Virus record (IMG/VR): IMGVR_UViG_2822641076_000001 | Span: 57,830-121,829 of that record | Length of the DNA stretch: 64,000 nucleotides | Reading direction: 5' to 3' (one strand) | DNA from: a virus | Taxonomy: Duplodnaviria > Heunggongvirae > Uroviricota > Caudoviricetes | Shown here: one piece after another, positions 6,638 through 62,174 of the stretch | How positions within the stretch are numbered: position 1 is the first letter of the stretch | Layout of the letters: every line of letters starts with the position of its first letter | Notes under the pieces: generated by a model | Seen by the model: only the letters and a program-made list of their open reading frames with translations | What the model was told of the DNA's origin: nothing | Database searches by the model: none | Program-made: the position numbers and the translations under genes

Positions 6638-6766
6638 GCGAACATACACACACACATACATACATAGACTACGAAGATAGTCAGCTTAGACCAACTCAAA
6701 CAGTTGAGTCACAAGCAAGATAAGGAACATAAAAGTTACAAAGCTATAAAGGAGAAGTGGTACGAA

Positions 6767-12815: not shown

Positions 12816-13550
12816 ATGACAGTGCAAATAGATGAACTACAAGTTATAGAAGAACAAGATTTAACATTACCCGAAAATGGATATAAATTAGTAGCTGAAA
12901 CGATACATAAATATTTTACTTACTATCCTTATTACGAGAAGACACATGGATACACATTCGATGATTTAATGCAATTTGGAATCATTGGGTGGATGAAATC
13001 ATTAGATGCTCATGACGAATCAAAAGGTAAACTTTCAACAATAGCTGTTAGATATATTCGAACTGAAATCTATAATGCAGTGCGAAGTACATATAAAGGT
13101 GTTCGAGTGAGTTACGAGGTTACACGGATTGCGAAATATATGCGTAAGCATCGGGGGAAGAAAACCCTGCAAGAAGTTCAGAAGAAATTTGATGCGTCGG
13201 ATGAAGTTATGAAAAGAGCTTTGTCATTTATGGATATGACAGTGATGAGCCTTGAAATAAAAGTGGGCGAGAGCAATAGAGGAGAGAGTAGAAAGTTAAT
13301 TGACATGATTAGTGATGAGAACGCTCATCATGATATGGAATTAGCAGGTCTCAAAACAGGACTCTCCAAGCGATTAGCTGTCGTATCTGAAACTCAAAGA
13401 ACTTGCATCTTACTTCGGTTACAAGGGTACACCCCAACGGAGATTGGGAAGATGTTGGGAAAGAGTACTGCAACTGTATCAATGCAAATTCATCATGGTA
13501 CAACAAAAATTAATAAAGTGTTCAATCACTCGATTGAAAATGTCGCATAA
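12816..13550 (+). CDS. sigma-70 family sigma factor (244 aa)
   Basis: Region-2-like segment FGIIGWMKSLDAHDESKGKLSTIAVRYIRTEIYNAVRS, and a region-4 HTH in ETQRTCILLRLQGYTPTEIGKMLGKSTATVSMQIHHGTTKI. Confidence 0.75.
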   Translation: MTVQIDELQVIEEQDLTLPENGYKLVAETIHKYFTYYPYYEKTHGYTFDDLMQFGIIGWMKSLDAHDESKGKLSTIAVRYIRTEIYNAVRSTYKGVRVSYEVTRIAKYMRKHRGKKTLQEVQKKFDASDEVMKRALSFMDMTVMSLEIKVGESNRGESRKLIDMISDENAHHDMELAGLKTGLSKRLAVVSETQRTCILLRLQGYTPTEIGKMLGKSTATVSMQIHHGTTKINKVFNHSIENVA

Positions 13551-25008: not shown

Positions 25009-26145
25009 ATGCAGTTCACTTTAGCAGATTATAAGAAGTTTCAACTTGAAAAAGAAGAGGGCTACATTACTGAGAAACGACATCCTTGGTTTAAGAATCT
25101 AGTAATTCTCAATTACACGAACCGAGCAGTTGTTGACCGTCGATGGAACAACGAAACGATGATGGCACGAGGATTAATCCTTGATACGAATACATTAGAG
25201 GTAGTTGCTAAGCCGTTTCCAAAGTTCTTTAATATGGATGAGAATTTAGAGTATCAGCGTGATATTCCACGATGTGACTGTAATCCACCAACGCTAACCG
25301 TGAAGCAGGATGGTTCACTAGGTATCAGTTACATGATGGGTAATGCTTTATTTTGGGCTACTAGAGGTTCTTTTGAATCCAAACAGGCATTTATTGCGAA
25401 TGAGATTTGGGATAGAAAATATGCTACCAAAATCATTAAGGATGAAAAGCTCCGTGAAACGCTACGAGGAATCACTTTATTAGTTGAAATCATTGACCCT
25501 AAGACACGAATTGTCGTGGATTACGAAGGAATGTCTGACTTAATTCTTATTGGAGCTGTTGACATTCGAGGTAAGTTCCCGATTGATTTAACAATGGATT
25601 CGTTAAAAGCTATTGGTCAAATGTTAGATATGCCTGTGACCGAGCAAGTAGATTTAACAATAGATGAAGCAATCAAAATGAAGAGTGAAATTCCTGCTAA
25701 TGAAGAAGGTTGGGTATTGCAGTGGGATAATGGCAAGCGATTGAAAGTAAAGGGCGATGATTATATGGCTGTACACCGTGTAGCTTATGGATTATCACTC
25801 AAGCGAAAACTAGAGGCTTGGCACACTGGCAAAATGAAAGAATTAATCGAGCAAGTTCCCGAAGAGTTCCGTAAAGAAGTAGAAGCATTCCAAGATAATT
25901 GGGACGCACTTGCTATGACAATTACTGAAAACCTTCAATACATATTAGATGAGTGTCTTGCTAATGCAGAGACTCGTAAAGATTTTGCTACAAATGTAAA
26001 AAATAATGAATCTCTAGAGAAAAGATATCAATCTCTAATCTTCACTGGTTATGACACGAAGAAGATTAACATTGATGTAATCAAGATGTATATCTACAAA
26101 AACTACAGAGATTTCATCGAAGAGGGAGAAGAAGAAGATGCTTAA
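25009..26145 (+). CDS. ATP-dependent RNA ligase, T4 Rnl1 (RnlA)-like (378 aa)
   Basis: Motif I [10 protein letters not shown] aligns with T4 Rnl1 KEDGSLVSTY. Upstream ARGLILD...[15 protein letters not shown] matches [43 protein letters not shown] matches KGSIKSEQALMAN. Motif IV/V is [16 protein letters not shown]. Size matches Rnl1. Confidence 0.8.
   Translation: [378 protein letters not shown]
25990..26010 (+). promoter_or_regulatory. intragenic motif copy (ACAAaTGTAAAAAATAATGAA) inside the RNA ligase CDS, 128 bp before the kinase/HD gene
   Basis: The element is encoded within ...[13 protein letters not shown]... A possible internal promoter. Confidence 0.4.
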
Positions 26146-27142
26146 ATTCATGATGATGGTAGGCATCCCTGCAAGCGGAAAATCAACGTTCGCAGAGCTT
26201 CTAGCGGAACAAGATGACGCAATTCTACTTTCCTCTGACGTTGTTGGTAAAGAGTTACATGGTGAAGACAATGAACGCAATAACGAAGAGGTGTTTGCTC
26301 TAATGTTTGAGCGAACCGTAGAAGCTCTAATGCAAGGGAAGAGTGTTGTATATGATGCAACAAATATCAATCGTAACCGTAGAATCGGATTACTTCAACG
26401 ACTTAACCGTACTTTCAAAGCAACTGGTGCTATGAAGTTTGTATACTACATTAATACGGCTGTTGAGGTAGCTCTTTTAGATAATGGATTAAGAGGAAAA
26501 CCAGTACCACCTTTCGTGATTGAGCGCTCGTACAAGAGTTTAAATGTGCCAATCAAAGAGGAAGGTTGGGATGATGTATATATCATTCAGCGCCAAGAAG
26601 GTGTGTTTGATATTGAAGACCGCAAAGACATTATGAAGATTGTTCAAAGTGGCGGAACTCATGAGGAAATCATGACAGGTCTTATGGGGTATTTCCCTGA
26701 GTTCCTAGCCATGTATAACATGCCACAGGACTCGAAATATCATTCATTCTCTGTGAGTCGTCATGTATACCATGTATACAAATATGTCTTTGACAACTTT
26801 GATAATGGGAGTGAATATGACCGATTAGTGATGCTGTGGACTGCACTGCTTCATGATATCGGCAAACCATACTGTAAGAATTTTGAGAGCCGTGACGGTG
26901 AGGAAACACGCTATGCAAACTTCATCTCACATGAGAACGTAGGAGCGCAAATAGCTAGCTCAATTCTTGCTAAAGCAGTACATAATGATGATTTTATCCT
27001 TCAAGTTACTAAGCTGATTCAGTTCCATATGGTTCTGTTGAATGCAGGTGAAAAAGGAAAGAATCGACTAAGACGATTAGTTGGAGATAAAACATATGAG
27101 ATGCTAGAAATCTTGCGAGATGCAGATACTCTAGCACACTAA
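26138..27142 (+). CDS. polynucleotide 5'-kinase (P-loop) fused to an HD-domain phosphohydrolase (334 aa)
   Basis: N-terminal Walker A GIPASGKST (compare T4 Pnk GCPGSGKST). C-terminal HD signature WTALLHDIGKP with downstream His/Asp residues. Confidence 0.6.
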   Translation: MLKFMMMVGIPASGKSTFAELLAEQDDAILLSSDVVGKELHGEDNERNNEEVFALMFERTVEALMQGKSVVYDATNINRNRRIGLLQRLNRTFKATGAMKFVYYINTAVEVALLDNGLRGKPVPPFVIERSYKSLNVPIKEEGWDDVYIIQRQEGVFDIEDRKDIMKIVQSGGTHEEIMTGLMGYFPEFLAMYNMPQDSKYHSFSVSRHVYHVYKYVFDNFDNGSEYDRLVMLWTALLHDIGKPYCKNFESRDGEETRYANFISHENVGAQIASSILAKAVHNDDFILQVTKLIQFHMVLLNAGEKGKNRLRRLVGDKTYEMLEILRDADTLAH

Positions 27143-29751: not shown

Positions 29752-30030
29752 GTGGAAAAGTTATTACTAGAATTATTGCCGATTATTGCAACAGTATTCT
29801 TATCAATCTGTTATATCCCTCAGATTGTTAAAAACTATAAGACTAAAGATGTTAGTAGCATCTCATTATGGTTTTGGGTATTGTTAAACATTGCATTAAC
29901 TCTTATGTTCACAAATGCATTTATGATTTATAACAAATTTGGAACATATGGCTATCTGATTACAGAGACGTTTAACTTAGGGCTAGCTATGATAGTACTT
30001 ATTCAAGTGTTGATTTATCGAAAGAAATAA
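29752..30030 (+). CDS. membrane protein (92 aa, GTG start)
   Basis: GAAGGAGGTG SD. Three TM helices. Confidence 0.5.
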   Translation: MEKLLLELLPIIATVFLSICYIPQIVKNYKTKDVSSISLWFWVLLNIALTLMFTNAFMIYNKFGTYGYLITETFNLGLAMIVLIQVLIYRKK

Positions 30031-30230: not shown

Positions 30231-31307
30231 ATGGAAAAACAAATTATAGAATCAGCAAAACAAAACATTATAAAAATAGTAGACTCTTTAGAAGTTTCAA
30301 ATATAGACCAAGTTTACAGTGATGTTGTGAAATACTTAGACTTTGCAAAGGCTTATAGCCAACTACCTCATATCATCAATGGGTTAAATGAAGTGAGTGA
30401 AGAAGCGAATGAGCCTAATCAATCAAATGTCGTTAATTTAAGTGGAGATACAATTCAGCTACATACGGAGAACAAAATTGAGGGTTACGAGTTTAAGAGA
30501 AACATCAAAGGTGGCTATTTAGATGGAACGGATATATATGTTCCCGAAAAGTTCATCAGAGAACTTGGACTACAGCATGGAGACATTGTTAAAGCCGATA
30601 AGATTGGTGAAAAGCGATATAAATATACTGTGTTAGATGATTGTGGTTGTGATAGTTTATCCGATGTAATTTCGATTAAGATGGCTGTCGTAGAATACGA
30701 CCCTTCAAGTAATCGCTATACAGCTAGTAAGGATTGGATGGATAATCCTATTATGATTAACGGTCATAAAGCAGAGATTATTATCTCAGACAATGACTTT
30801 AGAAACTTTAGCATCATGACAGGGGATATTATTGATATCAGCGTAGATAAAAATGACCTTGATTTCAGTCGTGTTGTTTGGAAACATGCAACAACGGATG
30901 AATACAATAGACAGTATACATCAAGTATTAAAAGAGAACCTAAGAAGCCTATCATAGAGAAGAAGAAGCATGAGCAATTCTTCGCAGGTAAAAAGATTGT
31001 TATGGTTGGATTTGATGTAGAGAAAGCTAGTTTCAGAGATGCAGTTGAAAGACATGGTGGACAATTTGAATGTCTTCACGGAATGGAAGATGAATCAAGA
31101 TTTGAGGCAACTATGAAGGATGCAGATGCAGTTGTGCTAATGCTGAGCTTCGTTAAACATAGAGCTACTATCTTAGCAAATCAACTATGTAAAGATAATG
31201 GTATTCCATGTGATTCTTTACACACCAAGGGTAAAAGTGGATTTGTAAGAATGGCAAAAGAACTAATAGATAAGAAAGCAAAAGAGGTACATGTTACCTT
31301 AAAATAA
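30231..31307 (+). CDS. hypothetical protein (358 aa)
   Basis: Long ORF. The C-terminal region (KKIVMVGFDVEKASFRDAVERHGG...) is possibly Rossmann-like, but no confident call. Confidence 0.5.
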   Translation: MEKQIIESAKQNIIKIVDSLEVSNIDQVYSDVVKYLDFAKAYSQLPHIINGLNEVSEEANEPNQSNVVNLSGDTIQLHTENKIEGYEFKRNIKGGYLDGTDIYVPEKFIRELGLQHGDIVKADKIGEKRYKYTVLDDCGCDSLSDVISIKMAVVEYDPSSNRYTASKDWMDNPIMINGHKAEIIISDNDFRNFSIMTGDIIDISVDKNDLDFSRVVWKHATTDEYNRQYTSSIKREPKKPIIEKKKHEQFFAGKKIVMVGFDVEKASFRDAVERHGGQFECLHGMEDESRFEATMKDADAVVLMLSFVKHRATILANQLCKDNGIPCDSLHTKGKSGFVRMAKELIDKKAKEVHVTLK

Positions 31308-31425: not shown

Positions 31426-31461
31426 GGTGTTAAAAATAATGGTTTGAGGTAGGTGTTTAAA

Positions 31462-31614
31462 TTGCCTGTAGTTGCAGGTTTCATCTTAATTGGCGTTGCT
31501 CTTATATCTATTGCAATGGTTCTTGGAAAGTTAGGAATCTTAGACAAGATTGAGAAGACGTCAGGAAAAGCAAAGAACACATTAAAAAAAGAAGAGAAAA
31601 AGGAGAGTATTTAA
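31462..31614 (+). CDS. small membrane protein (50 aa, TTG start), candidate partner of the SPFH protein
   Basis: GGTAGGTG SD. One TM helix then a K/E-rich tail. Ends 2 nt before the SPFH gene. Confidence 0.35.
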   Translation: MPVVAGFILIGVALISIAMVLGKLGILDKIEKTSGKAKNTLKKEEKKESI

Positions 31615-31616
31615 CA

Positions 31617-32450
31617 ATGGCAATGAAAAAAGGTGCAGTAATTTTCTTAGCAGGTAGTATTTTTGTAGGCGGTATTGTGGGTATGTGTACAACTAAAATT
31701 TCGCAAGGTCAAGCAGGTGTTGTTTACAGTGCAAGCGGTGGAGTTAAAGGTGAAACATTATCTCAAGGTTGGCAAACAGTATCTCCATTTAGCCGAGTTA
31801 CAGAGTATCCGATTTCTACATCTACAGTTAACTACAAGGATTTAGCAATCGCTACGAAAGACGGTAAGCCGTTAACAATGGAGATTACATACGACTACTT
31901 CAATGATGTAGAGAAATTACCTCATATCTTCAACAAGTTCAAAGGTGCAAAGCCTGAGGCAATTGAAGATTCATGGTTAAAATCACGTCTAAAAGAGAGT
32001 GCTTTATCTGTAACATCTAAGTACACGATTCTAGAAGTATTCCAAAACCGTGAAAATATCCGTACTGAAATCCAAAAGAGATTCCAAGAGGATGTTAAGA
32101 AGCATGGATTCATTGTTGAGAATGTAACTTTAGGTAATCCAAAAGCTGACGGTCAAACTGAGCAAGCATTACAGAAAGTAATTGACCGACAACAAGAATT
32201 AGAAGCTTTAGAGATTGAGAAGAAGCAAGCTGTTGTTAAAGCTGAGAAGAAGATTGAAGAAGCAAAAGGTGAAGCTGAGTCTAAGCGTATTCAATCAGAA
32301 GCAGAAGCAAAAGCCAATGAAACTGTTAAGCAATCATTATCTCCTGAGATTGTGAACTACGAATCAATCAAGAAGTGGGATGGTAAATTACCAAGCGTTA
32401 CAGGCGGAGCAACACCAATGGTAACAATTCCTCAAGGTGAAAATAAGTAA
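31617..32450 (+). CDS. SPFH/band-7 (stomatin/HflC-like) membrane protein (277 aa)
   Basis: N-terminal TM helix AVIFLAGSIFVGGIVGMC followed by an SPFH core (QGQAGVVYS...GWQTVSPFSRVTEYPISTSTVNYKDLAIATKDGKPLTMEITYDY) and a C-terminal coiled coil. Confidence 0.6.
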   Translation: MAMKKGAVIFLAGSIFVGGIVGMCTTKISQGQAGVVYSASGGVKGETLSQGWQTVSPFSRVTEYPISTSTVNYKDLAIATKDGKPLTMEITYDYFNDVEKLPHIFNKFKGAKPEAIEDSWLKSRLKESALSVTSKYTILEVFQNRENIRTEIQKRFQEDVKKHGFIVENVTLGNPKADGQTEQALQKVIDRQQELEALEIEKKQAVVKAEKKIEEAKGEAESKRIQSEAEAKANETVKQSLSPEIVNYESIKKWDGKLPSVTGGATPMVTIPQGENK

Positions 32451-32512
32451 TTAACCTACTATGGAGCGGAATCTTCTGCTCCATAGTTTAATGAATAAAA
32501 AGGAGTGTTGAA

Positions 32513-33337
32513 ATGAAGAAGAAGTTAATCAGCGCAACTTTAGCAGGCTTAATTATTGGCGGTGGTATCAGTGGAGCTGTAGTTCATCAAGCTTTCCCAA
32601 AGGAAGTTGTGAAGACTGAGGTTAAAACTGAACAGGTTGGTTCATTGGCTAAGCAAAATGCTATGGCTACCCTATGGACTCAATCATCTGCTGAGGCAAA
32701 CGCATTGCGTTTACAAGCGTATAACGTTGCTAAAGAGCGTGTAGATGAAGCTGTGAAAAATGGAATCGTTCATAAGGCTGTAGTACTCGATATTGATGAA
32801 ACAATTATCAACAATATGGACTACATGGCGTGGGCTGTAAAGAATGAGAAGAAATTCCCTGACCAATGGTCTGAGTGGATTAAATCTGCTCAAGGTGAAG
32901 AGATTGCAGGAGCAGTTGATTTCATTAAACATGCACAAGCAAATGGTGTAGAAGTATTCTTAGTTTCTAACCGAGACAAGAGCGAGATGGAAGGTACTCT
33001 AGAGAATCTGAAAAAGATTGGTTTAGGAGATATCGACCGTGAGCATATCATGCTAAAAGACAAGAGCTCTAGTAAGCAAGAACGCATGGATATGGTAGAA
33101 GTCAATCACAATGTATTACTGTACATTGGAGACAATCTAGCTGACCATAGCGATGATTTTTACAAGAAGAATGTCTCAGAGCGTGCAGAAGCACTGAAAG
33201 CTCATAAGGATGACTTCGGTACTAAATATATCATTCTTCCAAACTCTGCATATGGCGAGTGGGAAGGAACTATCTATAATCATGATTACAGCAAAGACCA
33301 AAATAAAGCACGAATGGATGCTTTAAAAGGATTCTAA
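32513..33337 (+). CDS. secreted or membrane-anchored HAD-IIIB acid phosphatase, 5'-nucleotidase e(P4)/class-B family (274 aa)
   Basis: Signal/TM segment, then motif I VVLDIDETIINN (DxDET), motif III FLVSNRD and motif IV IGDNLADHSDDF. Confidence 0.6.
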   Translation: MKKKLISATLAGLIIGGGISGAVVHQAFPKEVVKTEVKTEQVGSLAKQNAMATLWTQSSAEANALRLQAYNVAKERVDEAVKNGIVHKAVVLDIDETIINNMDYMAWAVKNEKKFPDQWSEWIKSAQGEEIAGAVDFIKHAQANGVEVFLVSNRDKSEMEGTLENLKKIGLGDIDREHIMLKDKSSSKQERMDMVEVNHNVLLYIGDNLADHSDDFYKKNVSERAEALKAHKDDFGTKYIILPNSAYGEWEGTIYNHDYSKDQNKARMDALKGF

Positions 33338-33357
33338 CAAGTGTAAAAAATAATGAA
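33337..33357 (+). promoter_or_regulatory. canonical motif copy directly upstream of nrdI
   Basis: ACAAGTGTAAAAAATAATGAA ends 16 nt before the nrdI start. Head of the nucleotide-metabolism operon. Confidence 0.5.
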
Positions 33358-33372
33358 TTGGAGTTGGCTGAA

Positions 33373-33750
33373 TTGCTTATTGTGTATGACTCAAAGACGA
33401 AGAACGTTGAGAGATTTGTGCAAAAGCTAGACATGCCCAACACAAAGATTCATAGAGACTTAGTGGTTAGTGAGAAGTTCGTCCTGATTACATATACGAC
33501 GGGCTTCGGAGCTGTCCCTAAGTCTACTATTGATTTTTTGAGAAATAACCCCAAGCACGCTGAAAACATCGTAGGTGTTTGTGCTAGTGGCAACAAAAAT
33601 TGGGGCATGAGATTCGCTTTTAGTGCCGACAGAATCTCAGAGGAGTTTGAAGTAAATATATTGCACAAATTCGAGATGTCGGGGCTAGACAGCGACGTTG
33701 AAAAAGTTAAATCAGAGGTGAAGCGAATTTGGCAAAATATTACGAACTGA
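33373..33750 (+). CDS. nrdI: NrdI flavodoxin-like protein (125 aa, TTG start)
   Basis: MLIVYDSKTKNVERFVQKL... is typical of the NrdI N-terminus. GGAG SD 8 nt before the TTG at 33373 (the track starts at the TTG at 33358). The 3' end overlaps nrdE. Confidence 0.7.
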   Translation: MLIVYDSKTKNVERFVQKLDMPNTKIHRDLVVSEKFVLITYTTGFGAVPKSTIDFLRNNPKHAENIVGVCASGNKNWGMRFAFSADRISEEFEVNILHKFEMSGLDSDVEKVKSEVKRIWQNITN

Positions 33751-35837
33751 ATAATGAAGTAAAAATTGAGAAAGATGGAAGATTCCAATTCGAGAAAGAC
33801 TTGGAAGCAGTAAAGAGTTACTTTGTAGACCATGTTAACCAAAACATGCAATACTTCCATACTCTCAATGAACAATTAGAGTACATGTTTGGTGATAATT
33901 CAACCGAATCAATCTACTATGACAAGAAAATCTTTGACATGTATAAATTCGAAGAGGTAGAAGAAATCTTCAAATATGTATACGATAAGGAATTTAGATT
34001 TGCATCATTCATGTCGGCATTTAAATTCTACAACAATTACTCGTTGAAGACAGATGATGGTACACGATACCTAGAGCGATATGAAGACCGAGTAGCTGTA
34101 AATGCATTGTTCTTTGGTAAAGGTGATGTGGAGAAGGCTAAGAGGTTTGCAACTGTATTAATCCAACAAGATTATCAGCCTGCAACGCCCACGTTCTTGA
34201 ATGTAGGAAGATATCGTGGTGGTAAATATGTATCATGTTTCCTTTTAGATACACAGGATACAACAGAAAGTATCTTCTATGCTCTGCAATCAGCAGGTCA
34301 CTTGTCACGTATGGGTGGAGGAGTTGCAATCAACTTATCTAAATTACGTAGTGCAGGAGAAGATATTAGTGGAACTGAGAATGCCTCTAAGAGTGTTGTT
34401 GGCGTAGCTAAATTATTTGAAGGTGTATTCAATCAGTTCGACCAAAAAGGTCAACGTAAAGGTGCAGGAGCGGTTTACTTAAACATCTTCCATCCTGATA
34501 TTATCGAGTTCTTGTCTACGAAAAAGATTAATGCCGATGAGAATATTCGATTAAAAACACTTTCTCTTGGTCTTATTATTCCAAACAAGTTCTATGAGCT
34601 TGCTGAGAAGAATGAACCGTACTTTACATTCTATCCTAATAGTGTCCGTAAAGAGTATGGAATTTATTTAGATGACATGGACATGGATGAATGGTATGAG
34701 AAGTTGCTTAATAACCCACGAGTACGTAAGAAGCAAATGCTTCCTGCTCGTAAGATGCTTACAGATATCGCTAAAACTCAAATTGAGAGTGGTTATCCAT
34801 ACCTAATCAATATTGATAATGCGAATGAGCAACACACGCTTAAAGGGTTGGGAAAAGTCAAAATGTCTAATTTGTGTGTGGAAATTTTCCAACTGCAAAC
34901 TGAGTCTGATATCCAAGGATACAAGGGTGAAGATAAGTTTGGATACGATGTTAACTGTAATCTAGGTTCTATCAACATCGTAAATGTTATGGAAAATAAG
35001 AATATTAAAGAAGCTGTACGATTAGCAGTTAACGCTTTGACGACAGTATCTATTGAATCTGCAATTGATGAAGTACCAACTGTTAAGAAAGCAAATGAAG
35101 CACTTCATTCTGTTGGTCTTGGAGCTATGAACCTACATGGATATTTAGCTAAGAATAAAATCCTGTACAGTAGCGAATATGCACGAGACTTTGCGAACAC
35201 ATTCTTTATGATGATGCGTTTCTATGCATTAGAAGAGAGTAATGACATAGCTAAAGAACTGGGCGAAACATTTACAGGATTTGAGAAGAGTGAGTACGCA
35301 AACGGAAATGCTCTCAAGAAATACTTGGAAAAGAGTTTTGCTCCGAAGACTGAGAAAGTACAGAAATTGTTTGAGGGAATTTATATTCCAACTCAAGAGG
35401 ACTGGGCTGAATTAAATGAAAAGATTTTGAAGCACGGACTGTTTAATGCTTATAACATGGCAATCGCTCCGACTCAATCCATCTCATATGTTCAGAACGC
35501 TACTCAAAGTGTACTTCCTGTCATCGAACCAATCGAGACTCGTACATACGAAGATAGTACAACGCATTATCCAATGCCGTACATCTCAAATGAGAATTTC
35601 TTCTTCTACCAATCAGCATATGACGTTGATATGTATAAGCTGATTGACTTAATGGCGGTAATTCAAGGTCACGTTGACCAAGGAATTTCAACAACATTAT
35701 ATGTAGATGGAATGACAACGACGACACGAGATTTAGCTAGATACTTTATCTATGCACAGAAAAAAGGACTGAAATCTCTGTACTATACACGTACAAAGAA
35801 ATCAGATATCAGCGAATGTAGTTCATGTTCAGTTTAA
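33729..35837 (+). CDS. nrdE: ribonucleotide reductase class Ib large subunit (702 aa, TTG start)
   Basis: Active-site NLCVEI, C-terminal CSSCSV thiol pair and overall NrdE length. Continuous ORF with no intein or intron gap. Confidence 0.9.
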   Translation: MAKYYELNNEVKIEKDGRFQFEKDLEAVKSYFVDHVNQNMQYFHTLNEQLEYMFGDNSTESIYYDKKIFDMYKFEEVEEIFKYVYDKEFRFASFMSAFKFYNNYSLKTDDGTRYLERYEDRVAVNALFFGKGDVEKAKRFATVLIQQDYQPATPTFLNVGRYRGGKYVSCFLLDTQDTTESIFYALQSAGHLSRMGGGVAINLSKLRSAGEDISGTENASKSVVGVAKLFEGVFNQFDQKGQRKGAGAVYLNIFHPDIIEFLSTKKINADENIRLKTLSLGLIIPNKFYELAEKNEPYFTFYPNSVRKEYGIYLDDMDMDEWYEKLLNNPRVRKKQMLPARKMLTDIAKTQIESGYPYLINIDNANEQHTLKGLGKVKMSNLCVEIFQLQTESDIQGYKGEDKFGYDVNCNLGSINIVNVMENKNIKEAVRLAVNALTTVSIESAIDEVPTVKKANEALHSVGLGAMNLHGYLAKNKILYSSEYARDFANTFFMMMRFYALEESNDIAKELGETFTGFEKSEYANGNALKKYLEKSFAPKTEKVQKLFEGIYIPTQEDWAELNEKILKHGLFNAYNMAIAPTQSISYVQNATQSVLPVIEPIETRTYEDSTTHYPMPYISNENFFFYQSAYDVDMYKLIDLMAVIQGHVDQGISTTLYVDGMTTTTRDLARYFIYAQKKGLKSLYYTRTKKSDISECSSCSV

Positions 35838-35881
35838 CGGGTTTCCGTTAGGCTGAACTTATATTAAACAGAGGTGAATTT

Positions 35882-36856
35882 ATGCATAAAGCAGTTAACT
35901 GGAACATTGAAGAAGATAGTTTTACACAGATGTTTTGGCAACAAAACGTTGCTCAATTTTGGCTAGATACGGAAATTCCTATTTCCAATGATTCAAAGTC
36001 TTGGAGATTACTATCTCCCGAACAACAAGAGACTTATAAGAAAGTATTAGGTGGTTTAACACTACTAGATACCAAGCAATCTATCGCAGGGATGCCTAAG
36101 ATTTCTGAACATATTCCCGATTTACAGCGTAAAGCAGTTCTATCATTCATGGGAACTATGGAAGCAGTACATGCAAAATCTTATTCTACTATTTTTACAA
36201 CACTTATCAGTCCACAAGAAATCGACGAAGTGTTTGAGTGGGTAAACGAACATCCACGACTGCAACAAAAAGCAGACCGCATTGATAGTTTATATCAGAA
36301 TATCAATGATGAGTTAAGCCTTTATATGGCTATGGTAGCAAGTGTATTCCTAGAAAGTTACTTATTCTATAGTGGATTCTTCTATCCTCTGTATCTTGCA
36401 GGTCAAGGAAAGATGGTTGCTAGTGGTGAGATTATCAATCTAATTTTACGTGATGAAAGTATTCACGGGGTTTATGTTGGTCTTCTAGCTCAGGAAGTAT
36501 TCGAAGAGCTAACAGAAGAAGAGAAACAACATGCACACAATATGGTAATCGAGTTATTAGAAGAATTGATGGAAATTGAGTTCCGCTACACTGAGGAAAT
36601 CTATGCTCCAATTGGTTTAGACCACGAAGTAAAGAATTTCTTACAGTACAACGCTAATAAAGCGATGATGAATCTAGGTCTTGAGCCAATTTATGAAGAG
36701 AAGAAGATTAATCCTATCGTTGAGAATGGGTTGAAGACTGATACGAAGAACCATGATTTCTTCTCAACTAAAGGTAATGGCTATTTAAAAGCTATTTACG
36801 AAGATTTAAATGATGATGATTTCCACTTCCCACAATTGGAAGCTGAAAATAAATAA
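35882..36856 (+). CDS. nrdF: ribonucleotide reductase class Ib small subunit (324 aa)
   Basis: Di-metal ligand motifs EAVHAKSYS and DESIHG. Correct size. Confidence 0.9.
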   Translation: MHKAVNWNIEEDSFTQMFWQQNVAQFWLDTEIPISNDSKSWRLLSPEQQETYKKVLGGLTLLDTKQSIAGMPKISEHIPDLQRKAVLSFMGTMEAVHAKSYSTIFTTLISPQEIDEVFEWVNEHPRLQQKADRIDSLYQNINDELSLYMAMVASVFLESYLFYSGFFYPLYLAGQGKMVASGEIINLILRDESIHGVYVGLLAQEVFEELTEEEKQHAHNMVIELLEELMEIEFRYTEEIYAPIGLDHEVKNFLQYNANKAMMNLGLEPIYEEKKINPIVENGLKTDTKNHDFFSTKGNGYLKAIYEDLNDDDFHFPQLEAENK

Positions 36857-36879
36857 ACAAAACGAAAGGAAGTATAGCA

Positions 36880-37137
36880 ATGAAAGTAATTAAGTTTTAC
36901 CAAACACCATGTACACCATGTAACATGCTTGTTGACACTATGGGACGTTTAGGTGTGAAAGCAGATGAGGAGTACAACGTAAAAGAAGAAAAAGGTATGG
37001 AAATGGCAGGAGAGTTTGGAGTTGTAAAAACACCAGTACTAATTCTGTTAGATGATACTGGCGCAGAAGTACAGCGTTATCAAGGCGTAGGTCAATCAAA
37101 AGTGACTGAAATCTTTACAAAACGTGGATTGCTGTAA
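36880..37137 (+). CDS. nrdH: NrdH/glutaredoxin-like thioredoxin-fold protein (85 aa)
   Basis: CTPC redox motif near the N-terminus (KFYQTPCTPCNML). Positioned after nrdF. Confidence 0.55.
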   Translation: MKVIKFYQTPCTPCNMLVDTMGRLGVKADEEYNVKEEKGMEMAGEFGVVKTPVLILLDDTGAEVQRYQGVGQSKVTEIFTKRGLL

Positions 37138-37304
37138 GTAGTGATTGATGTACGAGAGAATGAAGAACTCAAGAAGTTGATAGAGAACAATCCTGACTGT
37201 GAGATTGTACCGTTCAGTGAAGATACAGTACTTATTCTTCCACGTCAAGAGAAGATGATAAAGGTTGTTTTTGAACCACCTGACATTAGCGATTGGAGGA
37301 TATT

Positions 37305-37493
37305 ATGATTAGCGAATTTGGTTTTAATTGGCGTGAAATTAGTGTTGATTACGTTAAGAAGTGTGTAGGCAAAGAGGATTTGATGTGTAAGCACGGCAAA
37401 GAGTTCTTTTTCATTGAAAAGACAGATGTTCCACCCGATTATATCAGATTCGACTTTCTAATCAGGGGTTCTTGGTTCATCCGAGTGCAGTAA
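37305..37493 (+). CDS. hypothetical protein (62 aa)
   Basis: GGAGG SD 7 nt before the ATG at 37305 (the track starts at the TTG at 37293). Confidence 0.4.
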   Translation: MISEFGFNWREISVDYVKKCVGKEDLMCKHGKEFFFIEKTDVPPDYIRFDFLIRGSWFIRVQ

Positions 37494-37524
37494 AATGACA
37501 ATTTTATTTAAGGGAGGGAGCATC

Positions 37525-37683
37525 ATGAACATCAAAAAAGAGCTTAAAAAGACTCTACAAGAGCTTGATGTTAGATTGCAAAACTATTGGTCACGAGAAG
37601 AACGTGCGATGCTGTATATTGCCAAAAGCAATACCTTAATGGCTCTACAAAAATACGAAACTAGCGAGGAGAAAGCAGAATGA
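37525..37683 (+). CDS. hypothetical protein (52 aa)
   Basis: GGAGGGAG SD before the ATG at 37525 (internal to track ORF 37495..37683). Confidence 0.4.
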   Translation: MNIKKELKKTLQELDVRLQNYWSREERAMLYIAKSNTLMALQKYETSEEKAE

Positions 37684-37985
37684 GCAAATACAGTTTAACT
37701 AAGAGACCTGCTGTTGAAGGGTTTAAAGTGACAATTGTCGCAGATTCAAATGATGCGGACTACATCACAACAATCAATACATACACAAAGAGTGAATTTG
37801 AAGATGGTATTATTGATGAACTAATTGATTTACAAGAAAACCATAGTGGTCACTATGAGCTTGAGAAATTCCATTATGACCACCTACAAATTCCATATGG
37901 TGACATGGACATCTGTCACACACTATCGAGTATTGATGTAGAGTACACGGACGCAGAAGGAAATGTGTGGGACGTAGTATTTTAA
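37680..37985 (+). CDS. hypothetical acidic protein (101 aa)
   Basis: ATGA overlap. GAGGAG SD. Confidence 0.5.
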   Translation: MSKYSLTKRPAVEGFKVTIVADSNDADYITTINTYTKSEFEDGIIDELIDLQENHSGHYELEKFHYDHLQIPYGDMDICHTLSSIDVEYTDAEGNVWDVVF

Positions 37986-37993
37986 AAAACACC

Positions 37994-38014
37994 ACAAGTG
38001 TAAAAAATAATGAA
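37994..38014 (+). promoter_or_regulatory. canonical motif copy followed by a cccctc-gtaat-gagggg hairpin (38020-38036)
   Basis: Same motif-then-hairpin-then-SD arrangement as at recJ. Confidence 0.5.
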
Positions 38015-38054
38015 TTTATCCCCTCGTAATGAGGGGAAGCGGAGGGAAAACACA

Positions 38055-38777
38055 ATGACAAAATTAAAGAAAAAGAAAAACTATTACAAAGCAGGCGAGT
38101 TAGTAACTCTAAAGGAAACTAAGGAGACTGTGAAAGTTAAAGATGTAAATCTTACTAGCTATGAAGCTACTGTTACATTCAAGGATGGCAAAGAGAAAGT
38201 TGTTAAGTTATGGGACATCCGTAAGTTGCCAATTCGCAAAGATTCTCACAAGGACACTGTGTTATTTGCACGAGTTCGTGAGGATGCAATTATCCCAACT
38301 AAGCGTGATGAAGATGCAGGATTTGATTTATATGCGAACCTAGAGACTGCACGAGTGGTTCAAGAAGGGGAAGAGCAAGTTCATGTACGTGAGCTATTGC
38401 TTCCAAAAGGTAGACCGACGTTAGTACCAACAGGTATTGCAACATCTATGCTTCCTAAGTACTACATGAATCTTAAACACGAACGTGGTTCTACTGGGAA
38501 AGTAGGCATGAACATTTTAAGTGGTGTCGTGGATAGTGGATACCGTGGAGAAATCTTCATCAATATCGTTCCTCTTTACAAGGATATCGTTCTTACATCT
38601 GCCGTAACAGAAGTTGAAGAGCATGAGAATATGATTCTTTACCCATACAACAAGGCTATTGCTCAAGCAACAATTGAGTATGTGCCACCAGTACGAGTGA
38701 AGGAAATTTCATTTGAAGAATTAAAAGCAATTCCGTCTGAACGTGGTGAAGGCAAGTTAGGTTCAAGCGGTAAATAA
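38055..38777 (+). CDS. dut: dUTPase with about 60 aa of N-terminal extension (240 aa)
   Basis: All five dUTPase motifs: AGFDLYA, ERGSTGKVG, GVVDSGYRGE, AIAQATIE and ERGEGKLGSSGK. GGAGGGAAAA SD before the ATG at 38055. Confidence 0.85.
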   Translation: MTKLKKKKNYYKAGELVTLKETKETVKVKDVNLTSYEATVTFKDGKEKVVKLWDIRKLPIRKDSHKDTVLFARVREDAIIPTKRDEDAGFDLYANLETARVVQEGEEQVHVRELLLPKGRPTLVPTGIATSMLPKYYMNLKHERGSTGKVGMNILSGVVDSGYRGEIFINIVPLYKDIVLTSAVTEVEEHENMILYPYNKAIAQATIEYVPPVRVKEISFEELKAIPSERGEGKLGSSGK

Positions 38778-38797
38778 AACTAGAGGAGCAATTACAT

Positions 38798-39253
38798 ATG
38801 GCATACGAAAATACAGGCGCAAAGAAGATTTATTTAGCATCACCTTTCTTCTGTGAGGAAGAAATTGAAAGAGTAGCATTCATGGAGAAGTTGTTACGTG
38901 AACAAGGATTCGATGTATTCTCTCCACGAGAAAATCAATTCGACCAGTACGAACTTTTCTCAAAAGAGTGGCGTGAAGCAGTTTACTTAAATGATATGAA
39001 ACACCTAATGGAAGCTGATATGGTAGTAGCTATTTATGATGGTGAAGGCGAAGGTTCTGACCAAGGAACAATCTTTGAAGTTGGAGCAGGTATCGTAGCA
39101 GGTAAATTTGTGATTGTATTCACAGAGAAGCATGATGGCATCAACTTAATGCTTACTGACTCTTGTCACGCATTCCTAAAAGGTCGTCAAGAAGCTCTAG
39201 ATTATGACTGGAAGAACCTACCGACTAACTACTGGCATGGCGGAGTTCGCTAA
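38798..39253 (+). CDS. nucleoside 2-deoxyribosyltransferase (151 aa)
   Basis: KIYLASPFF (NDT N-terminal motif) and the catalytic-Glu region DQGTIFEVGAG. Confidence 0.65.
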   Translation: MAYENTGAKKIYLASPFFCEEEIERVAFMEKLLREQGFDVFSPRENQFDQYELFSKEWREAVYLNDMKHLMEADMVVAIYDGEGEGSDQGTIFEVGAGIVAGKFVIVFTEKHDGINLMLTDSCHAFLKGRQEALDYDWKNLPTNYWHGGVR

Positions 39254-39321
39254 TTACTGTTAATTGCTGTGGGGCTTTATGCTCCACGGCTAATAAATAA
39301 CTAACATTAAGGAAGTGGGCG

Positions 39322-39993
39322 ATGGCTATTATCTGTGTAGGTGGAATGATTTCTTTAGGGAAATCTAGCATGGCTAAATTATTAGGTGAAACATTAGAAA
39401 GTGAAGTGTTCTACGAATCAGTAGACAACAACCCTGTATTGGAGCGATTCTATACAGCAAGCAAAGAGGAAGCAGAAGCAGAGCGCTTAACATTCCTATT
39501 ACAACTATGGTTCTTGAATACGAGATTTGATTCTATCAAGAAAGCCTTGATACATTCTCATAACGTATTAGACCGCAGTATCTATGAAGATATCTATTTC
39601 ATGAAGCGTAATCAGCAATATGGACGATTAATTGGAGAAAACCGCATTACTGATTTAGAGGAAACAATCTACATGGGACTCTTTGAGAACATGATGGAAG
39701 AGCTTGAGGAGTTACCAAAGAAATCTCCTGACCTTATGGTCTACCTAAAAGGAAGCTTTGAAACAGTATTATATAGAATCAAGCAACGTGGACGTGAGTT
39801 TGAATTAGATGAAAAGCTAATCGAGTACTACAGATTCCTATGGGAAGAATACGACGAGTGGGTAATGAAACACTACAAAGCTAGCGAAGTCTTAATCATT
39901 GATGTAGACAATCTAGATTATGTTCACAACGAAAAGGACAAAGAGTATGTAGTGAAGCTTGTAAAAGAGAAATTAGAAGAATTAGGTATCTAG
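39322..39993 (+). CDS. deoxynucleoside kinase (dAK/dGK family; 223 aa)
   Basis: P-loop ICVGGMISLGKSS, the DRS motif LDRSIYEDIYF, and the lid region RIKQRGRE. Confidence 0.7.
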   Translation: MAIICVGGMISLGKSSMAKLLGETLESEVFYESVDNNPVLERFYTASKEEAEAERLTFLLQLWFLNTRFDSIKKALIHSHNVLDRSIYEDIYFMKRNQQYGRLIGENRITDLEETIYMGLFENMMEELEELPKKSPDLMVYLKGSFETVLYRIKQRGREFELDEKLIEYYRFLWEEYDEWVMKHYKASEVLIIDVDNLDYVHNEKDKEYVVKLVKEKLEELGI

Positions 39994-40006
39994 GAGGAAA
40001 ATAGAA

Positions 40007-41197
40007 GTGCAGATTTTAATGTCAGTATTAGGTCTTATTGGTCTAATAGGATTAGCATTCTTGCTATCTGAAAATAAGAAGAAAATTAAGTGGCGAACAA
40101 TTGGAACGGCTTTAGCTATGCAATTCCTATTAGCCTACCTGCTAGTAACAAGTGCAGGTCAACAAGCAATGAAATGGTTATCGGATGGCTATACAAAAAT
40201 CTCAAGCTATGCAACAGATGGAATCATGTTTGTATTTGGCGGATTCTTTAATGAGCATACAACATTTGTATTTGCAATCAATGTATTGATGGTAATCGTA
40301 TTCTTTGGAGCGTTATTCGCTGTGTTATTCTATCTGAATGTCATTCAGTTCTTTGTTAAATATGTGGGCGGTGCATTATCTAAACTACTTGGTACTACAC
40401 GAGTAGAAACATTTAGTGCAGTTATGAATATCTTTGCCTCACAAAACGAAGTTCCGACATTCATTAAACCATATCTGAAACATCTGACGAAAGCAGAACT
40501 GTTCGCAGTAATGGTTGCAGGAACAGGCTCTATGGCAGGTTCAATCTTAATTGGATACAGCTTAATGGGTATCCCGTTAGAATGGTTGCTTGTAGCATGT
40601 TTCATGGTTACAGGTTCTAGTTTATTAGTGGCAAAACTAATTGTTCCCGAAACAGAGGAGAGCCAAACGAACGGCAAGATTGAGCTTGACCGTAAGCAAG
40701 GTTCAGCTAATATTTTTGAAGCAATTTCAAATGGTGCAATGAGCGGTATGCAAATTGCTTGTGCTACAGCTACAATGCTAATTGCTTTCGTAGCATTAAT
40801 TGCATTAGTAAATGGTATCTTAGGAAACTTTGGCGTATCACTTGAGCAGTTGCTTGGATACTTATTCTATCCACTTGCATTCCTAATGAATGTAAGCCAT
40901 GACCAAGTAATGACAGCAAGTCAATTATTAGGTCAGAAGTTCGCAACGAATGAGTTTATTGCTTATTCTGCAATGGCAAAAGAGATGTCACAGATGGATA
41001 CTCGTACAATTGCTATGTTAACTATTGGTATCGGTGGCTTCGCTAACTTCTCATCTATTGGTATTTTACTGGGAAGCATTGGTGTTCTTGTTCCTGAGAA
41101 ACGAGGTATTGTTGCTAAGTACGGACTTCGTGCGATTGTAGCAGGACTTTTAGCAAATTTAATCAGTGCAACTATCGTTGGTATTTGGTTGCTGTAA
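40007..41197 (+). CDS. nupC: concentrative nucleoside transporter, NupC family (396 aa, GTG start)
   Basis: At least nine predicted TM helices. CNT signature GQKFATNEFIAYSAMA (NEF[IV]AY). AGGAGG SD. Confidence 0.75.
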   Translation: MQILMSVLGLIGLIGLAFLLSENKKKIKWRTIGTALAMQFLLAYLLVTSAGQQAMKWLSDGYTKISSYATDGIMFVFGGFFNEHTTFVFAINVLMVIVFFGALFAVLFYLNVIQFFVKYVGGALSKLLGTTRVETFSAVMNIFASQNEVPTFIKPYLKHLTKAELFAVMVAGTGSMAGSILIGYSLMGIPLEWLLVACFMVTGSSLLVAKLIVPETEESQTNGKIELDRKQGSANIFEAISNGAMSGMQIACATATMLIAFVALIALVNGILGNFGVSLEQLLGYLFYPLAFLMNVSHDQVMTASQLLGQKFATNEFIAYSAMAKEMSQMDTRTIAMLTIGIGGFANFSSIGILLGSIGVLVPEKRGIVAKYGLRAIVAGLLANLISATIVGIWLL

Positions 41198-41201
41198 CAT
41201 G

Positions 41202-41235
41202 GAGAGAGGGGAGAAATCCTCTCTCTTTTTATTTG
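41202..41235 (+). terminator. rho-independent terminator (gagagagg/cctctctc, then ttttt a tttg)
   Basis: 8-bp stem and T-run directly after the nupC stop. End of the nucleotide operon. Confidence 0.7.
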
Positions 41236-44179: not shown

Positions 44180-44368
44180 ATGAAATCTAGAGAACGTTTA
44201 GAGGTTGTAGGAAATTTTCAAAAGAAGACAACATGGTCTCATAGCAATGGATTTAAACAGAAATTATTCTTGAATGGTTTAGAGGTTGAGAACTACTTTA
44301 ACGGATTCGCAGGAAAAACGGTTAAGGTGACAGTCGAAGTCATAGATAGCCTTTCAAAGAATGATTGA
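44180..44368 (+). CDS. hypothetical protein (62 aa)
   Basis: TAGGAGAG SD. Confidence 0.45.
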   Translation: MKSRERLEVVGNFQKKTTWSHSNGFKQKLFLNGLEVENYFNGFAGKTVKVTVEVIDSLSKND

Positions 44369-44408
44369 AGAAAAGTACGATTTTATCCAACAAAGGAGCG
44401 AAACATCA

Positions 44409-45131
44409 ATGGTGAGTTTAATTGATTTAAGCAAGAAAGCACAGATAGTTTTAGAGAAAAAGGAAATCTTCGGTGAAAAGGCTCAAGTTGCAGTAGTCGA
44501 TGATATCTCTATTTCTATGGAAACACTCTACATGAACGGCACAATGCAAGAGCTAAACGATAGATTGCTAAGTATCGGTATGAATCTAGACGTCGATAAG
44601 AGCATTGATGTATTTGCGTTCGGTAAGCATTCACATGAGATTGGCACTGTAACAGAAGGGAATTATCAAGGGTTCATTAACAATGTTCTGCTACGAAAAG
44701 TGTCACTTGAAAGCTATACATACTACGCAGGAGTCATGGATAGAATCGTGAAGAAGTATGGTCAACCTGTGCAGAAACAAGGATTCCTTTCACGGCTAAT
44801 TGGAAGTAAACCTGCTGAAAAACCAACTGTGCCTACATTAGTATTCTTTGTAACAGACGGTGATAACTTTGACAAAGATGAAGCTGAAAAAATTATCCGT
44901 GAATCATCAAATCAAGCAATCTTTTGGCAGTTTATCGGAATTGGAAGAGCGAAATTTGAGTTCTTGGATAAGCTTAATAAAATGTCAGGAAGATTTCTAG
45001 ATAATGCAAACTTCTTCCACGTTAATGACTTACGTCAAATCAGTGATGAAGAGTTTATGAATAGAGTGCTAAATGAATTTCCACAGTGGATTAAAGAGGC
45101 ACGAAATAAAGGTGTGCTACAGGAGGGCTAA
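44409..45131 (+). CDS. von Willebrand factor A (vWA)-like protein (240 aa)
   Basis: MIDAS-like DxSxS in AVVDDISISMETL, plus a downstream TDGD motif. AAGGAG SD before the ATG at 44409 (the track starts at 44361). Confidence 0.4.
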   Translation: MVSLIDLSKKAQIVLEKKEIFGEKAQVAVVDDISISMETLYMNGTMQELNDRLLSIGMNLDVDKSIDVFAFGKHSHEIGTVTEGNYQGFINNVLLRKVSLESYTYYAGVMDRIVKKYGQPVQKQGFLSRLIGSKPAEKPTVPTLVFFVTDGDNFDKDEAEKIIRESSNQAIFWQFIGIGRAKFEFLDKLNKMSGRFLDNANFFHVNDLRQISDEEFMNRVLNEFPQWIKEARNKGVLQEG

Positions 45132-54335: not shown

Positions 54336-54917
54336 ATGGCTGAATTGCAGTATATTCACACAACAATGAACGGTCGAAAATCAGCAGAGCTTATCATGCG
54401 AGTTTTCAGCTTACAAGGACAACAGAAAGAGGTTCTTGTATTCAAGCCAAAGTTAGATACACGAGATGGAGATGCAGTTAAATCACGAGCATTGGACACT
54501 GAAATTCCTGCAACATTAGTTGGTGGAGAAGAAAAAGGCAAGATGTTTGAATTAGCGAAGAAGCATCGTCCGCTTTACATCTTTGTTGATGAAGCTCAGT
54601 TCTTAACAACAGAGCAAGTACTAGAATTAGTAAGCATTGTTGATGAATTGAAGATTGATGTGTACAGTTATGGACTGCTAGTTGATTTCAGAGGAGTTCT
54701 ATTTGAAGGCTCTAAAGCATTAATTGAGAATGCTGATACAATCTCCGATATGCCTAACGTGTGCATCTATTGTACAAATAAAGCAATCCGCAACATGCGA
54801 TTACTTAATAGTAGACCAGTGTTCCACGGAGAAGTGGTTCAAGTCGGTTTCGAAGAGAGTTATCGTAGCATTTGTCGTGAATGCTATAACTCTTTCCAAG
54901 CTACCTCTCAAATGTAA
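54336..54917 (+). CDS. tdk: thymidine kinase with atypical P-loop and C-terminal zinc ribbon (193 aa)
   Basis: TK framework: LVFKPKLDTRDG, FVDEAQFL, GLLVDFRG and CxxC...CRECYNSF. The P-loop reads TTMNGRKSAELI where TK has GPMFSGKSTELI. Confidence 0.65.
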   Translation: MAELQYIHTTMNGRKSAELIMRVFSLQGQQKEVLVFKPKLDTRDGDAVKSRALDTEIPATLVGGEEKGKMFELAKKHRPLYIFVDEAQFLTTEQVLELVSIVDELKIDVYSYGLLVDFRGVLFEGSKALIENADTISDMPNVCIYCTNKAIRNMRLLNSRPVFHGEVVQVGFEESYRSICRECYNSFQATSQM

Positions 54918-62159: not shown

Positions 62160-62174
62160 AAGGGGCTAATAATT

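Follow-up and report, generated by a model that had tools for sequence, protein, structure and literature searches.

The 64,000-nt stretch of phage DNA analysed here (the window; positions 57,830 to 121,829 of the IMG/VR record IMGVR_UViG_2822641076_000001, Caudoviricetes) carries a block of nucleotide-supply genes in which a predicted deoxynucleoside kinase (dNK) gene is followed immediately by nupC, coding for a predicted concentrative nucleoside transporter (CNT). Pairs of this type recur in several unrelated phages and are absent from the 80 bacterial loci sampled, a pattern suggesting that cells infected by these phages are made to take up deoxynucleosides from outside. Import followed by kinase trapping of deoxynucleosides for viral DNA synthesis is the best reading of this arrangement, with a probability of roughly 0.6, and the dNK-nupC pair appears to be the conserved core of the salvage route. 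All large open reading frames (ORFs) of the window lie on the + strand, to which all coordinates below refer.

A dNK homologue immediately precedes nupC, or is separated from it by one small ORF, in 12 of the 14 loci (7 of 9 lineages) retrieved from IMG/VR with two peptide patterns derived from a NupC alignment, counts which are lower bounds and possibly biased. The contigs surveyed are uncultured or assembly-derived, and the genes of each locus were called by greedy picking of ORFs. The two loci in which the kinase is lacking have a GC content of 62% and a cell-like gene layout. Among the cellular controls, the best 80 of at least 597 confirmed NupC matches in GTDB species genomes (mostly Bacillaceae and Gammaproteobacteria), no dNK gene occurs within 4 kb of nupC and a thymidine kinase gene is found at one locus (dNK pairing, viral versus cellular: Fisher p = 1.9e-13 by locus, 5e-9 by lineage). 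The cellular NupC proteins (TC 2.A.41) share three domains and the binding motifs with the phage protein, but their genes keep different company. DeoC (16), TatD (12) and uridine kinase (12) are the commonest immediate neighbours among 148 neighbouring ORFs, nucleoside phosphorylases and Tsx are also represented, and the three cellular NupCs nearest to the phage protein, of those examined, have unrelated neighbours. The nupC locus of Bacillus subtilis, with its dra-nupC-pdp arrangement, is a further cellular example. The juxtaposition of uridine kinase and nupC in cells follows a similar logic with another kinase, for which the phages substitute a deoxy-specific enzyme.

The phage pairs are embedded among genes for DNA replication. 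In the L011 group, L006 and the metagenomic locus L003, genes for PolA, an exonuclease, RuvC, dNK, NupC, a ligase-like domain, thymidine kinase and a dNMP kinase follow one another in this order, with a nucleoside 2-deoxyribosyltransferase (NDT) in addition in L003. The L008 group (30% GC, contigs of 132-242 kb) encodes, in sequence, DUF1064, a sigma factor, dNK, NupC, a RecJ-like protein and a DnaE-type polymerase. L005 contains dNK, NupC, a primase and then a baseplate protein. Judged by their gene content, these contexts are replication modules of at least three phage types. In none of 300 bootstrap trees did the phage NupC proteins form a monophyletic group, which rules out a single capture, with the proviso that only neighbour-joining was used. 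Two groupings received 100% support, one comprising L010 to L013 and the other joining the clade of the window protein with L005, L008 and one cellular Bacillaceae clade. The lack of monophyly implies that the dNK-nupC pairing was assembled or re-assembled on more than one occasion, and provisionally, given the simple tree method, it does appear to have been built more than once. Repeated assembly would in turn point to a functional reason for the pairing rather than to inheritance alone.

The nupC gene (40007-41197) begins with a GTG codon preceded by AGGAGG. Its product contains the Pfam domains PF01773 (Nucleos_tra2_N), PF07670 (Gate) and PF07662 (Nucleos_tra2_C) in this order, with scores of 79.7, 39.8 and 211.4 bits against cutoffs of 27, 29.6 and 32.3, and can be aligned from end to end with vcCNT (3TIJ; 1.8e-95). 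The binding motifs SQNE in HP1, NEF in HP2 and GFANFSS in TM7 are retained; the Q/E of HP1, the NEF of HP2 and the FANxSS of TM7 are residues that belong to the nucleoside and cation sites in the vcCNT structure. The protein is described as a divergent CNT member with predicted uptake activity and predicted substrates. It shows no more than 48% amino acid identity to any cellular NupC and 55-58% identity among the phage copies, and PHROGs retains the family as phrog_25571, of 'unknown function'. The adjacent dNK gene (39322-39993) is well supported by PF01712 (8.2e-34; 117.6 bits against a cutoff of 27) and by similarity to 2JAQ (3.8e-16), and its product has a P-loop (GGMISLGKS), a DRS motif and the lid RIKQRGR. 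On direct inspection the catalytic or binding motifs are intact in NupC, dNK and the NDT and e(P4) proteins discussed below, which lends support to the proposed salvage function.

Nei-Gojobori dN/dS estimates were derived by comparing the window with its relative L001, an IMG/VR element of 152,852 bp from B. cereus HuA3-9 with 88-96% (mostly 90-94%) DNA identity. The values are 0.020 for Dut, 0.028 for NupC, 0.032 for NDT and 0.051 for dNK, next to 0.045 for NrdE and 0.035 for NrdF, and NupC, NDT and dNK are thus estimated to be under purifying selection as strong as that on the reductase subunits. The low dN/dS of NupC, together with the 55-58% identity among phage copies as against at most 48% to cellular proteins, indicates an old and maintained phage gene rather than a recent passenger. 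The transporter could conceivably have some other job, such as handling a non-canonical substrate, export or superinfection exclusion, or be a decaying gene of host origin; substrate specificity is unreadable from the sequence and one binding-site residue differs from vcCNT. These options are highly improbable, since the dN/dS value, the full-length alignment and the intact binding motifs oppose decay, and the recurrent dNK partner points to a nucleoside as the substrate.

The phage itself is probably a temperate siphovirus of the Bacillus cereus group of approximately 150 kb, with Tsamsa and Geobacillus virus E3 as distant relatives, and the block belongs to the arm of its genome devoted to replication and nucleotide supply. 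The GC content is 34-39% across most of the window, in which PHROG and Pfam matches identify a DnaB-like helicase, primase, RecJ-like exonuclease, RNA ligase, DNA ligase, DnaE-type DNA polymerase, sigma factor, RNase H and a NAMPT-like protein. The DNA polymerase shows 62-64% identity to its counterparts in Geobacillus virus E3 and in the giant Bacillus siphoviruses of the Tsamsa/Thrax group. The sole match of the DNA of the region to GenBank phages is 390 bp in nrdF at 74% identity, and PLSDB plasmids give nrdF matches only (approximately 74%); the element is therefore not a deposited phage or plasmid. A tblastn search of the GenBank phage collection with NupC and e(P4) returned only low-identity, unannotated records ('Kay' or similar). 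These were set aside as host contamination, with no proof beyond the UNVERIFIED_ORG label of one of them. No tRNA was found in the window, and Rfam at gathering thresholds gave no riboswitch or known RNA anywhere in it.

The window NupC is identical to a protein of Bacillus cereus encoded on a contig of 149,886 bp. Its cluster and the P0002 cluster (approximately 58% identical) together comprise 22 sequence variants in B. cereus-group isolates (B. cereus, B. thuringiensis, B. wiedmannii and B. toyonensis), and in assemblies of sufficient length the contigs are mostly of approximately 150 kb. A ParM/ALP-like partition protein (1757-2968; phrog_691) and an MrpR-type tyrosine recombinase/resolvase (6704-7771) are encoded in the window, and the related Tsamsa and Tyroviruses have been described as temperate, with a plasmid stage proposed (PMC3903500; PMC9703825). 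The partition and resolvase genes and the recurrent contigs suggest a plasmid-like prophage stage, as for the Tyroviruses, and the phage may possibly be carried by its host in this form. NupC, e(P4) and perhaps dNK and NDT could then be expressed from the prophage and help the bacterium to scavenge nucleosides, a benefit of carriage by lysogenic conversion. The variants in isolates, the two maintenance genes and the temperate relatives are compatible with this explanation, as is the e(P4) gene, which resembles a moron in being a clean insertion or deletion without a motif of its own. The explanation is nevertheless rather unlikely. The motif heading dut-NDT-dNK-nupC is identical in kind to that of the polymerase, ligase and helicase genes, the dNK-nupC pair lies amid replication genes in other phage lineages, the hosts already have NupC paralogues, and the partner of nupC is a deoxynucleoside kinase rather than bacterial catabolic genes or a uridine kinase.

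The 13-mer core TGTAAAAAATAAT of the motif ACAAGTGTAAAAAATAATGAA occurs in 34 copies in the window at up to one mismatch, against 0.68 expected, and on the + strand only. Almost all copies are situated just upstream of a ribosome-binding site, usually by 5-40 nt (examples are at 9012, 17091, 24158, 33342, 37999, 41248, 55374 and 60841), and they also precede the DNA polymerase, ligase, helicase and thymidine kinase genes. The motif is read as a promoter of the phage or a regulatory signal of a related kind, and probably belongs to the class of promoters served by the sigma factor that the phage itself encodes (12816-13550). The copy at 12791 lies directly 3' of a sigma-A-like TTGACA-17-TATGAT, while those at 30072 and 41248 stand before TTGC(T/A)A-17-TACAAT. 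Copies are placed before nrdI (33337-33357), before dut (37994-38014, with a perfect core at 37999-38011) and after the terminator (41243), and all three places are kept in L001, where the copy before dut is at 7995. A leader hairpin of 7 bp (38019-38037) follows the internal copy. The genes of the block are separated by -22 to +69 nt on one strand and are closed by one intrinsic terminator (41201-41228; -17.8 kcal/mol, z -3.45), a 12-bp stem followed by the T-run TTTTTATTTGTTT.

If the motif is a promoter, the block would consist of two tandem, co-directional units, nrdIEF and the genes that follow it and dut-NDT-dNK-nupC, with no terminator between them, given the perfect copy inside the block at 37994-38014, which is conserved in L001. 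The initial annotation had proposed a single, entirely nucleotide-related 8-kb operon stretching from the motif copy at 33337 to a strong terminator and outlining one salvage chain. Its named genes are confirmed by strong family matches, and the motif and terminator are equally secure; the short gaps, common strand and single terminator also agree with an operon, while the internal motif copy speaks against a single one. Nor is every gene nucleotide-related, as four ORFs of the block have no Pfam match and one of them matches only phrog_29711. One obligate operon with a fixed linear order from e(P4) to NupC, NDT and dNK, although all four families are present and intact and the divergent relative L002 has kept both e(P4) and NupC, is improbable and in part already contradicted: the internal motif divides the block, e(P4) lies outside the unit and is missing from L001, NDT and dNK are missing from L002, and four genes of the block are of unknown function. 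The import-then-phosphorylation step of the chain draws strong comparative support from the viral pairing, which recurs in 7 of 9 lineages and at 0 of 80 cellular loci, and is also backed by the intact residues and the strong purifying selection.

L001 retains all genes from nrdI through nupC and lacks the e(P4) gene. L002, a 151-kb B. thuringiensis contig, encodes Band_7, e(P4), nrdIEF, the redoxin, dut and a NupC with 58% identity to that of the window, with thymidine kinase further on, but NDT, dNK and the four small ORFs are lacking. The first unit opens with the flavodoxin NrdI (33358-33750; TIGR00333 122.2 bits against a cutoff of 74.65, PF07972 4.6e-32), for which an alternative TTG start preceded by GGAG occurs at 33373. 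This is followed by the alpha subunit NrdE (33729-35837; TIGR04170 954.9 bits against 750) and the beta subunit NrdF (35882-36856; TIGR04171 472.7 bits against 355) of ribonucleotide reductase, and by these class-specific NCBIfam cutoffs the three proteins are assigned as a class Ib set. A 14-bp hairpin without a T-run (35827-35858; -20.5 kcal/mol, z -5.95) spans the nrdE stop codon and is possibly an element for RNA stability or 3'-end protection, an attenuator, or a setter of the NrdE:NrdF transcript ratio. The next gene codes for an 85-aa thioredoxin-fold redoxin (36880-37137) with a CTPC motif at residue 11, in place of the C-V/M-Q-C signature of NrdH, which reaches only the generic thioredoxin model PF00085, at exactly the cutoff of 23.5 bits, and phrog_22 (thioredoxin domain). 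It is a probable reductant for the reductase, although it cannot be assigned as NrdH and the earlier label 'nrdH-like' is not upheld. The four small ORFs (37141-37985; 55, 66, 62 and 101 aa) come last and are kept in L001 at 59-91% amino acid identity; it is the 101-aa ORF that matches phrog_29711, a PHROG of unknown function.

In the second unit, the dUTPase gene is open from 38010, and its start was set at 38055 (38055-38777), where GGAGGG precedes the start codon, as the motif overlaps the ATG at 38010. The trimeric-type enzyme matches PF00692 (25.5 bits against a cutoff of 22) and phrog_135 (1.2e-39), with 47.8 bits, below the cutoff of 103, for the NCBIfam dut model. The motifs AGFDL, RGS and GVVDSGYRGE are present, together with a variant C-terminal motif, RGEGKLGSSG. 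An N-terminal extension of approximately 75 aa (38055-38300), rich in Lys, Val and Thr, precedes motif 1; the phage dUTPase profile phrog_135 extends over it, but the Pfam dUTPase domain does not. The NDT gene (38798-39253) codes for a protein which exceeds the PF05014 cutoff (1.7e-19; 70.5 bits against 28.8), is similar to the characterised NDT of Bacillus psychrosaccharolyticus (6EVS; 2.9e-31) and contains YLASPFF at residue 12 and DQGTIFEVG, with the catalytic Glu, at residue 88. Its family membership follows from the model cutoff and motifs, while its transferase activity and base range are predicted. Two further genes were overlooked in the initial annotation. Thymidine kinase (54336-54917; PF00265 2.5e-34), in a separate unit headed by a motif copy at 54297, would complete the phage set of deoxynucleoside kinases, and a thymidylate-kinase-like (d)NMP kinase (12169-12693; PF02223 38.2 bits against a cutoff of 27) possibly performs the step after dNK and thymidine kinase.

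Upstream of nrdI lies a gene for an e(P4)-family class C acid phosphatase/5'-nucleotidase (32513-33337; TIGR01533 278 bits against a cutoff of 216), which is similar to the class C phosphatase of B. anthracis (2I33; 1.4e-56). As in the Haemophilus influenzae e(P4) and B. anthracis enzymes, it fits the family model and has the DDDD motifs (DIDET at residue 93, GDNLAD at residue 206), but it differs in lacking a lipobox Cys, in being phage-borne and in its variable presence among close relatives. An MKKK start and a single hydrophobic segment at residues 5-24 are compatible with a signal peptide or anchor, and the protein is predicted to be exported or membrane-anchored; a lipoprotein was ruled out, as the protein is devoid of Cys. 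The e(P4) gene was rightly placed upstream of the reductase genes in the initial annotation, but it has no motif copy of its own and belongs to the unit preceding nrdI, outside the unit headed by the nrdI motif. In L001 it is missing by a clean indel located exactly between the motif at 33337 and a 13-bp hairpin after the SPFH/Band_7 gene (32458-32487; -20.8 kcal/mol, z -5.27). This hairpin, which is kept in L001 and L002 and marks the upstream edge of the cassette, is followed by a weak T-tract only, and readthrough past it is plausible.

The e(P4) proteins of the window and L002 share 92% of their amino acids, as opposed to 56-79% for the flanking genes, and synonymous divergence is 0.38 for e(P4) against 0.9-2.1 for its neighbours, indicating that the cassette moved recently between phages. 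In a large protein search, relatives above 42% identity were confined to this phage family (two clusters, 25 sequences), while a pattern scan of IMG/VR with e(P4) yielded no matches. On these comparisons, e(P4) is an optional accessory cassette and not a fixed first step, and the salvage chain is likewise not a fixed unit, considering its absence from L001 and the absence of NDT and dNK from L002. The unit into which it is inserted (31453-32450) codes for a 53-aa hydrophobic peptide and then an N-terminally anchored SPFH/Band_7 protein (Pfam 2.1e-28; phrog_200, 'lipoprotein'). The order Band_7 then e(P4) is also found in L002, and all three products are predicted to be membrane or exported proteins. 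A function of e(P4) as a nicotinamide mononucleotide (NMN) nucleotidase in NAD salvage, like the Haemophilus enzyme, is a minor possibility only, because the NAD genes of the window (60871-63923) use ADP-ribose and nicotinamide and no PnuC is annotated in the window.

Taken together, the predicted products outline two routes to dNTPs. NrdI, NrdE and NrdF would make dNDPs by oxygen-dependent reduction, while NupC in the membrane of the infected cell would concentrate external (deoxy)nucleosides, which dNK, helped by the thymidine kinase at 54336, would trap as dNMPs unable to leave the cell. NDT would swap bases between deoxynucleosides, such that whichever deoxyribose donor arrives could supply any of the four, and dUTPase would clear the dUTP to which salvaged dU and dC give rise. 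The remaining steps to dNTPs would fall to host kinases and the thymidylate-kinase-like enzyme at 12169. Where present, e(P4) would serve as an optional exported front end, converting external (d)NMPs, for example from lysed neighbours, to transportable nucleosides. As a class Ib reductase needs oxygen, salvage could work where the reductase cannot. A broader proposal, held tentatively and at somewhat under even odds, is that Firmicute phages repeatedly assembled a dNK and NupC capture module, from at least three transporter origins, and that some phages of the B. cereus group added the exported 5'-nucleotidase. On this view infected cells would harvest deoxynucleosides, and with the phosphatase also nucleotides, from the DNA debris of neighbours lysed earlier, and would gain an oxygen-independent dNTP route beside the oxygen-dependent class Ib reductase.

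Several points weigh against import and kinase trapping for viral DNA synthesis. All functions have been deduced from sequence. This applies to the direction and substrates of transport, to the specificity of the enzymes, to expression in the lytic cycle and to any gain in burst size, and the promoter role of the motif is itself deduced in this way. The HP1 motif of NupC is SQNE where vcCNT has GQTE, a change of one binding-site residue from T to N, and the protein scores below the cutoff of the NCBIfam subfamily TIGR00804 (395.3 against 442 bits). L002 retains NupC in the absence of dNK and NDT. NupC is not encoded by any cultured phage of the GenBank phage collection, where the matches were confined to UNVERIFIED_ORG records, and the comparative support consequently rests wholly on uncultured or assembly-derived contigs, in which the two-pattern scan may have introduced the bias mentioned above. 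Finally, the contigs of approximately 150 kb in many isolates and the ParM-like and MrpR-like genes make expression in a carried, non-lytic state possible.

Towards the end of the window, genes for a PRPS-like protein (60871-61680), a Macro-domain protein (61659-62159) and a NAMPT-like protein (62175-63923) follow one another on the + strand, with the motif copy at 60841 ahead of them. This order corresponds to that of NARP1-AP (Adps-Adpp-Namat), an extended phage NAD+ reconstitution pathway (bioRxiv 10.64898/2026.01.28.702374). Such an investment in rebuilding depleted pools raises the question of whether the salvage set mainly refills dNTP pools drained by host defences that deplete deoxynucleotides, defences of this kind being on record (PMC12871103; PMC12265719). 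This alternative is improbable. The literature search linked neither dNK nor NupC to any defence system, the import of external nucleosides is slow relative to acute intracellular depletion, and the module is located with general nucleotide-supply genes.

Elsewhere in the window, a 92-aa PQ-loop protein (29752-30030, + strand; Pfam 3.3e-10), of the size of a bacterial SemiSWEET, may be a second small transporter encoded by the phage; its gene precedes the nucleotide block by a few kb. At 25009-27142 (+ strand), the gene for an RNA ligase (phrog_562) comes ahead of one for a kinase-plus-HD protein (AAA_33, HD), a pair which looks like tRNA/RNA repair of the T4 Rnl/Pnk type. In a 358-aa protein (30231-31307, + strand), a Rho RNA-binding-like domain is joined to DUF2325, which is not a usual combination for the early region of a phage. 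A vWA-TerF-like protein is encoded at 44361-45131 (+ strand) and the genes TerD, TerD and TerC occur at 16710-18808 of L002, indicating that tellurite-resistance-type genes are carried by this phage family.

The reductase, dUTPase, NDT and thymidine kinase genes are ordinary for large Bacillus phages, and only dNK-NupC and sometimes e(P4) are unusual in this set. In the large protein search, the e(P4) protein has no more than 42% identity to anything outside its phage family. Among the genes listed for the Tyroviruses, to which this phage is related, are those for NDT, dUTPase and subunits of the reductase (PMC9703825), and a survey of plasmid-prophages does not mention the nucleotide genes of this element (PMC8026635). 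The literature search found no report of a phage CNT/NupC, nucleoside permease or dNK-nupC pairing. The claim of the initial annotation that a phage import-plus-salvage chain had not been described as a unit is thus borne out for nucleoside importers in the literature searched, but not for other substrates. Tyroviruses encode an NMN transporter and an NMN adenylyltransferase (PMC9703825) and some phages encode YhhQ homologues for preQ0 transport (PMC6884629). As in the phage described here, these viruses encode an uptake protein and a precursor-using enzyme; their transporters belong to other families, and what they carry is a precursor of NAD or of deazaguanine, not a building block of DNA. 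The herpesvirus UL43/BMRF2 proteins, for which an equilibrative nucleoside transporter (ENT)-like fold is reported and a metabolic role proposed (PMC11410667), are also virus-encoded and akin to nucleoside transporters, but they derive from eukaryotic viruses, resemble ENT and not CNT proteins, mainly at the level of fold, and have putative substrates.

The enzymatic part of the salvage route has cellular and phage counterparts as well. Lactobacilli without ribonucleotide reduction use NDT and deoxynucleoside kinase for salvage. Genes for these two enzymes are annotated in Lactobacillus and Enterococcus phages, and the enzyme families and the logic, by which deoxyribose is redistributed and the products are phosphorylated, are alike. 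Unlike those systems, the present phage adds an importer and a complete class Ib reductase. The enzyme and transporter families, auxiliary metabolic genes and virus-encoded importers were thus known, while the substrate class and the recurrent, phage-specific pairing of dNK with nupC would be new.

The known phage nucleotide-supply genes act on pools inside the cell, while an importer and a trapping kinase would draw precursors from the environment. The dNK-nupC pair is a compact two-gene module, and the contrast between cellular nupC, placed with catabolic genes or uridine kinase, and phage nupC, placed with dNK, would represent one transporter rewired for a different end. Under the wider scheme of repeatedly assembled capture modules, phage yield would be tied to the extracellular nucleoside pool. 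If import and trapping operate as proposed, a new class would be added to the short list of virus-encoded nutrient importers, infection would alter the sensitivity of the cell to nucleoside analogues, and burst size would depend on external nucleosides or the debris of lysis.

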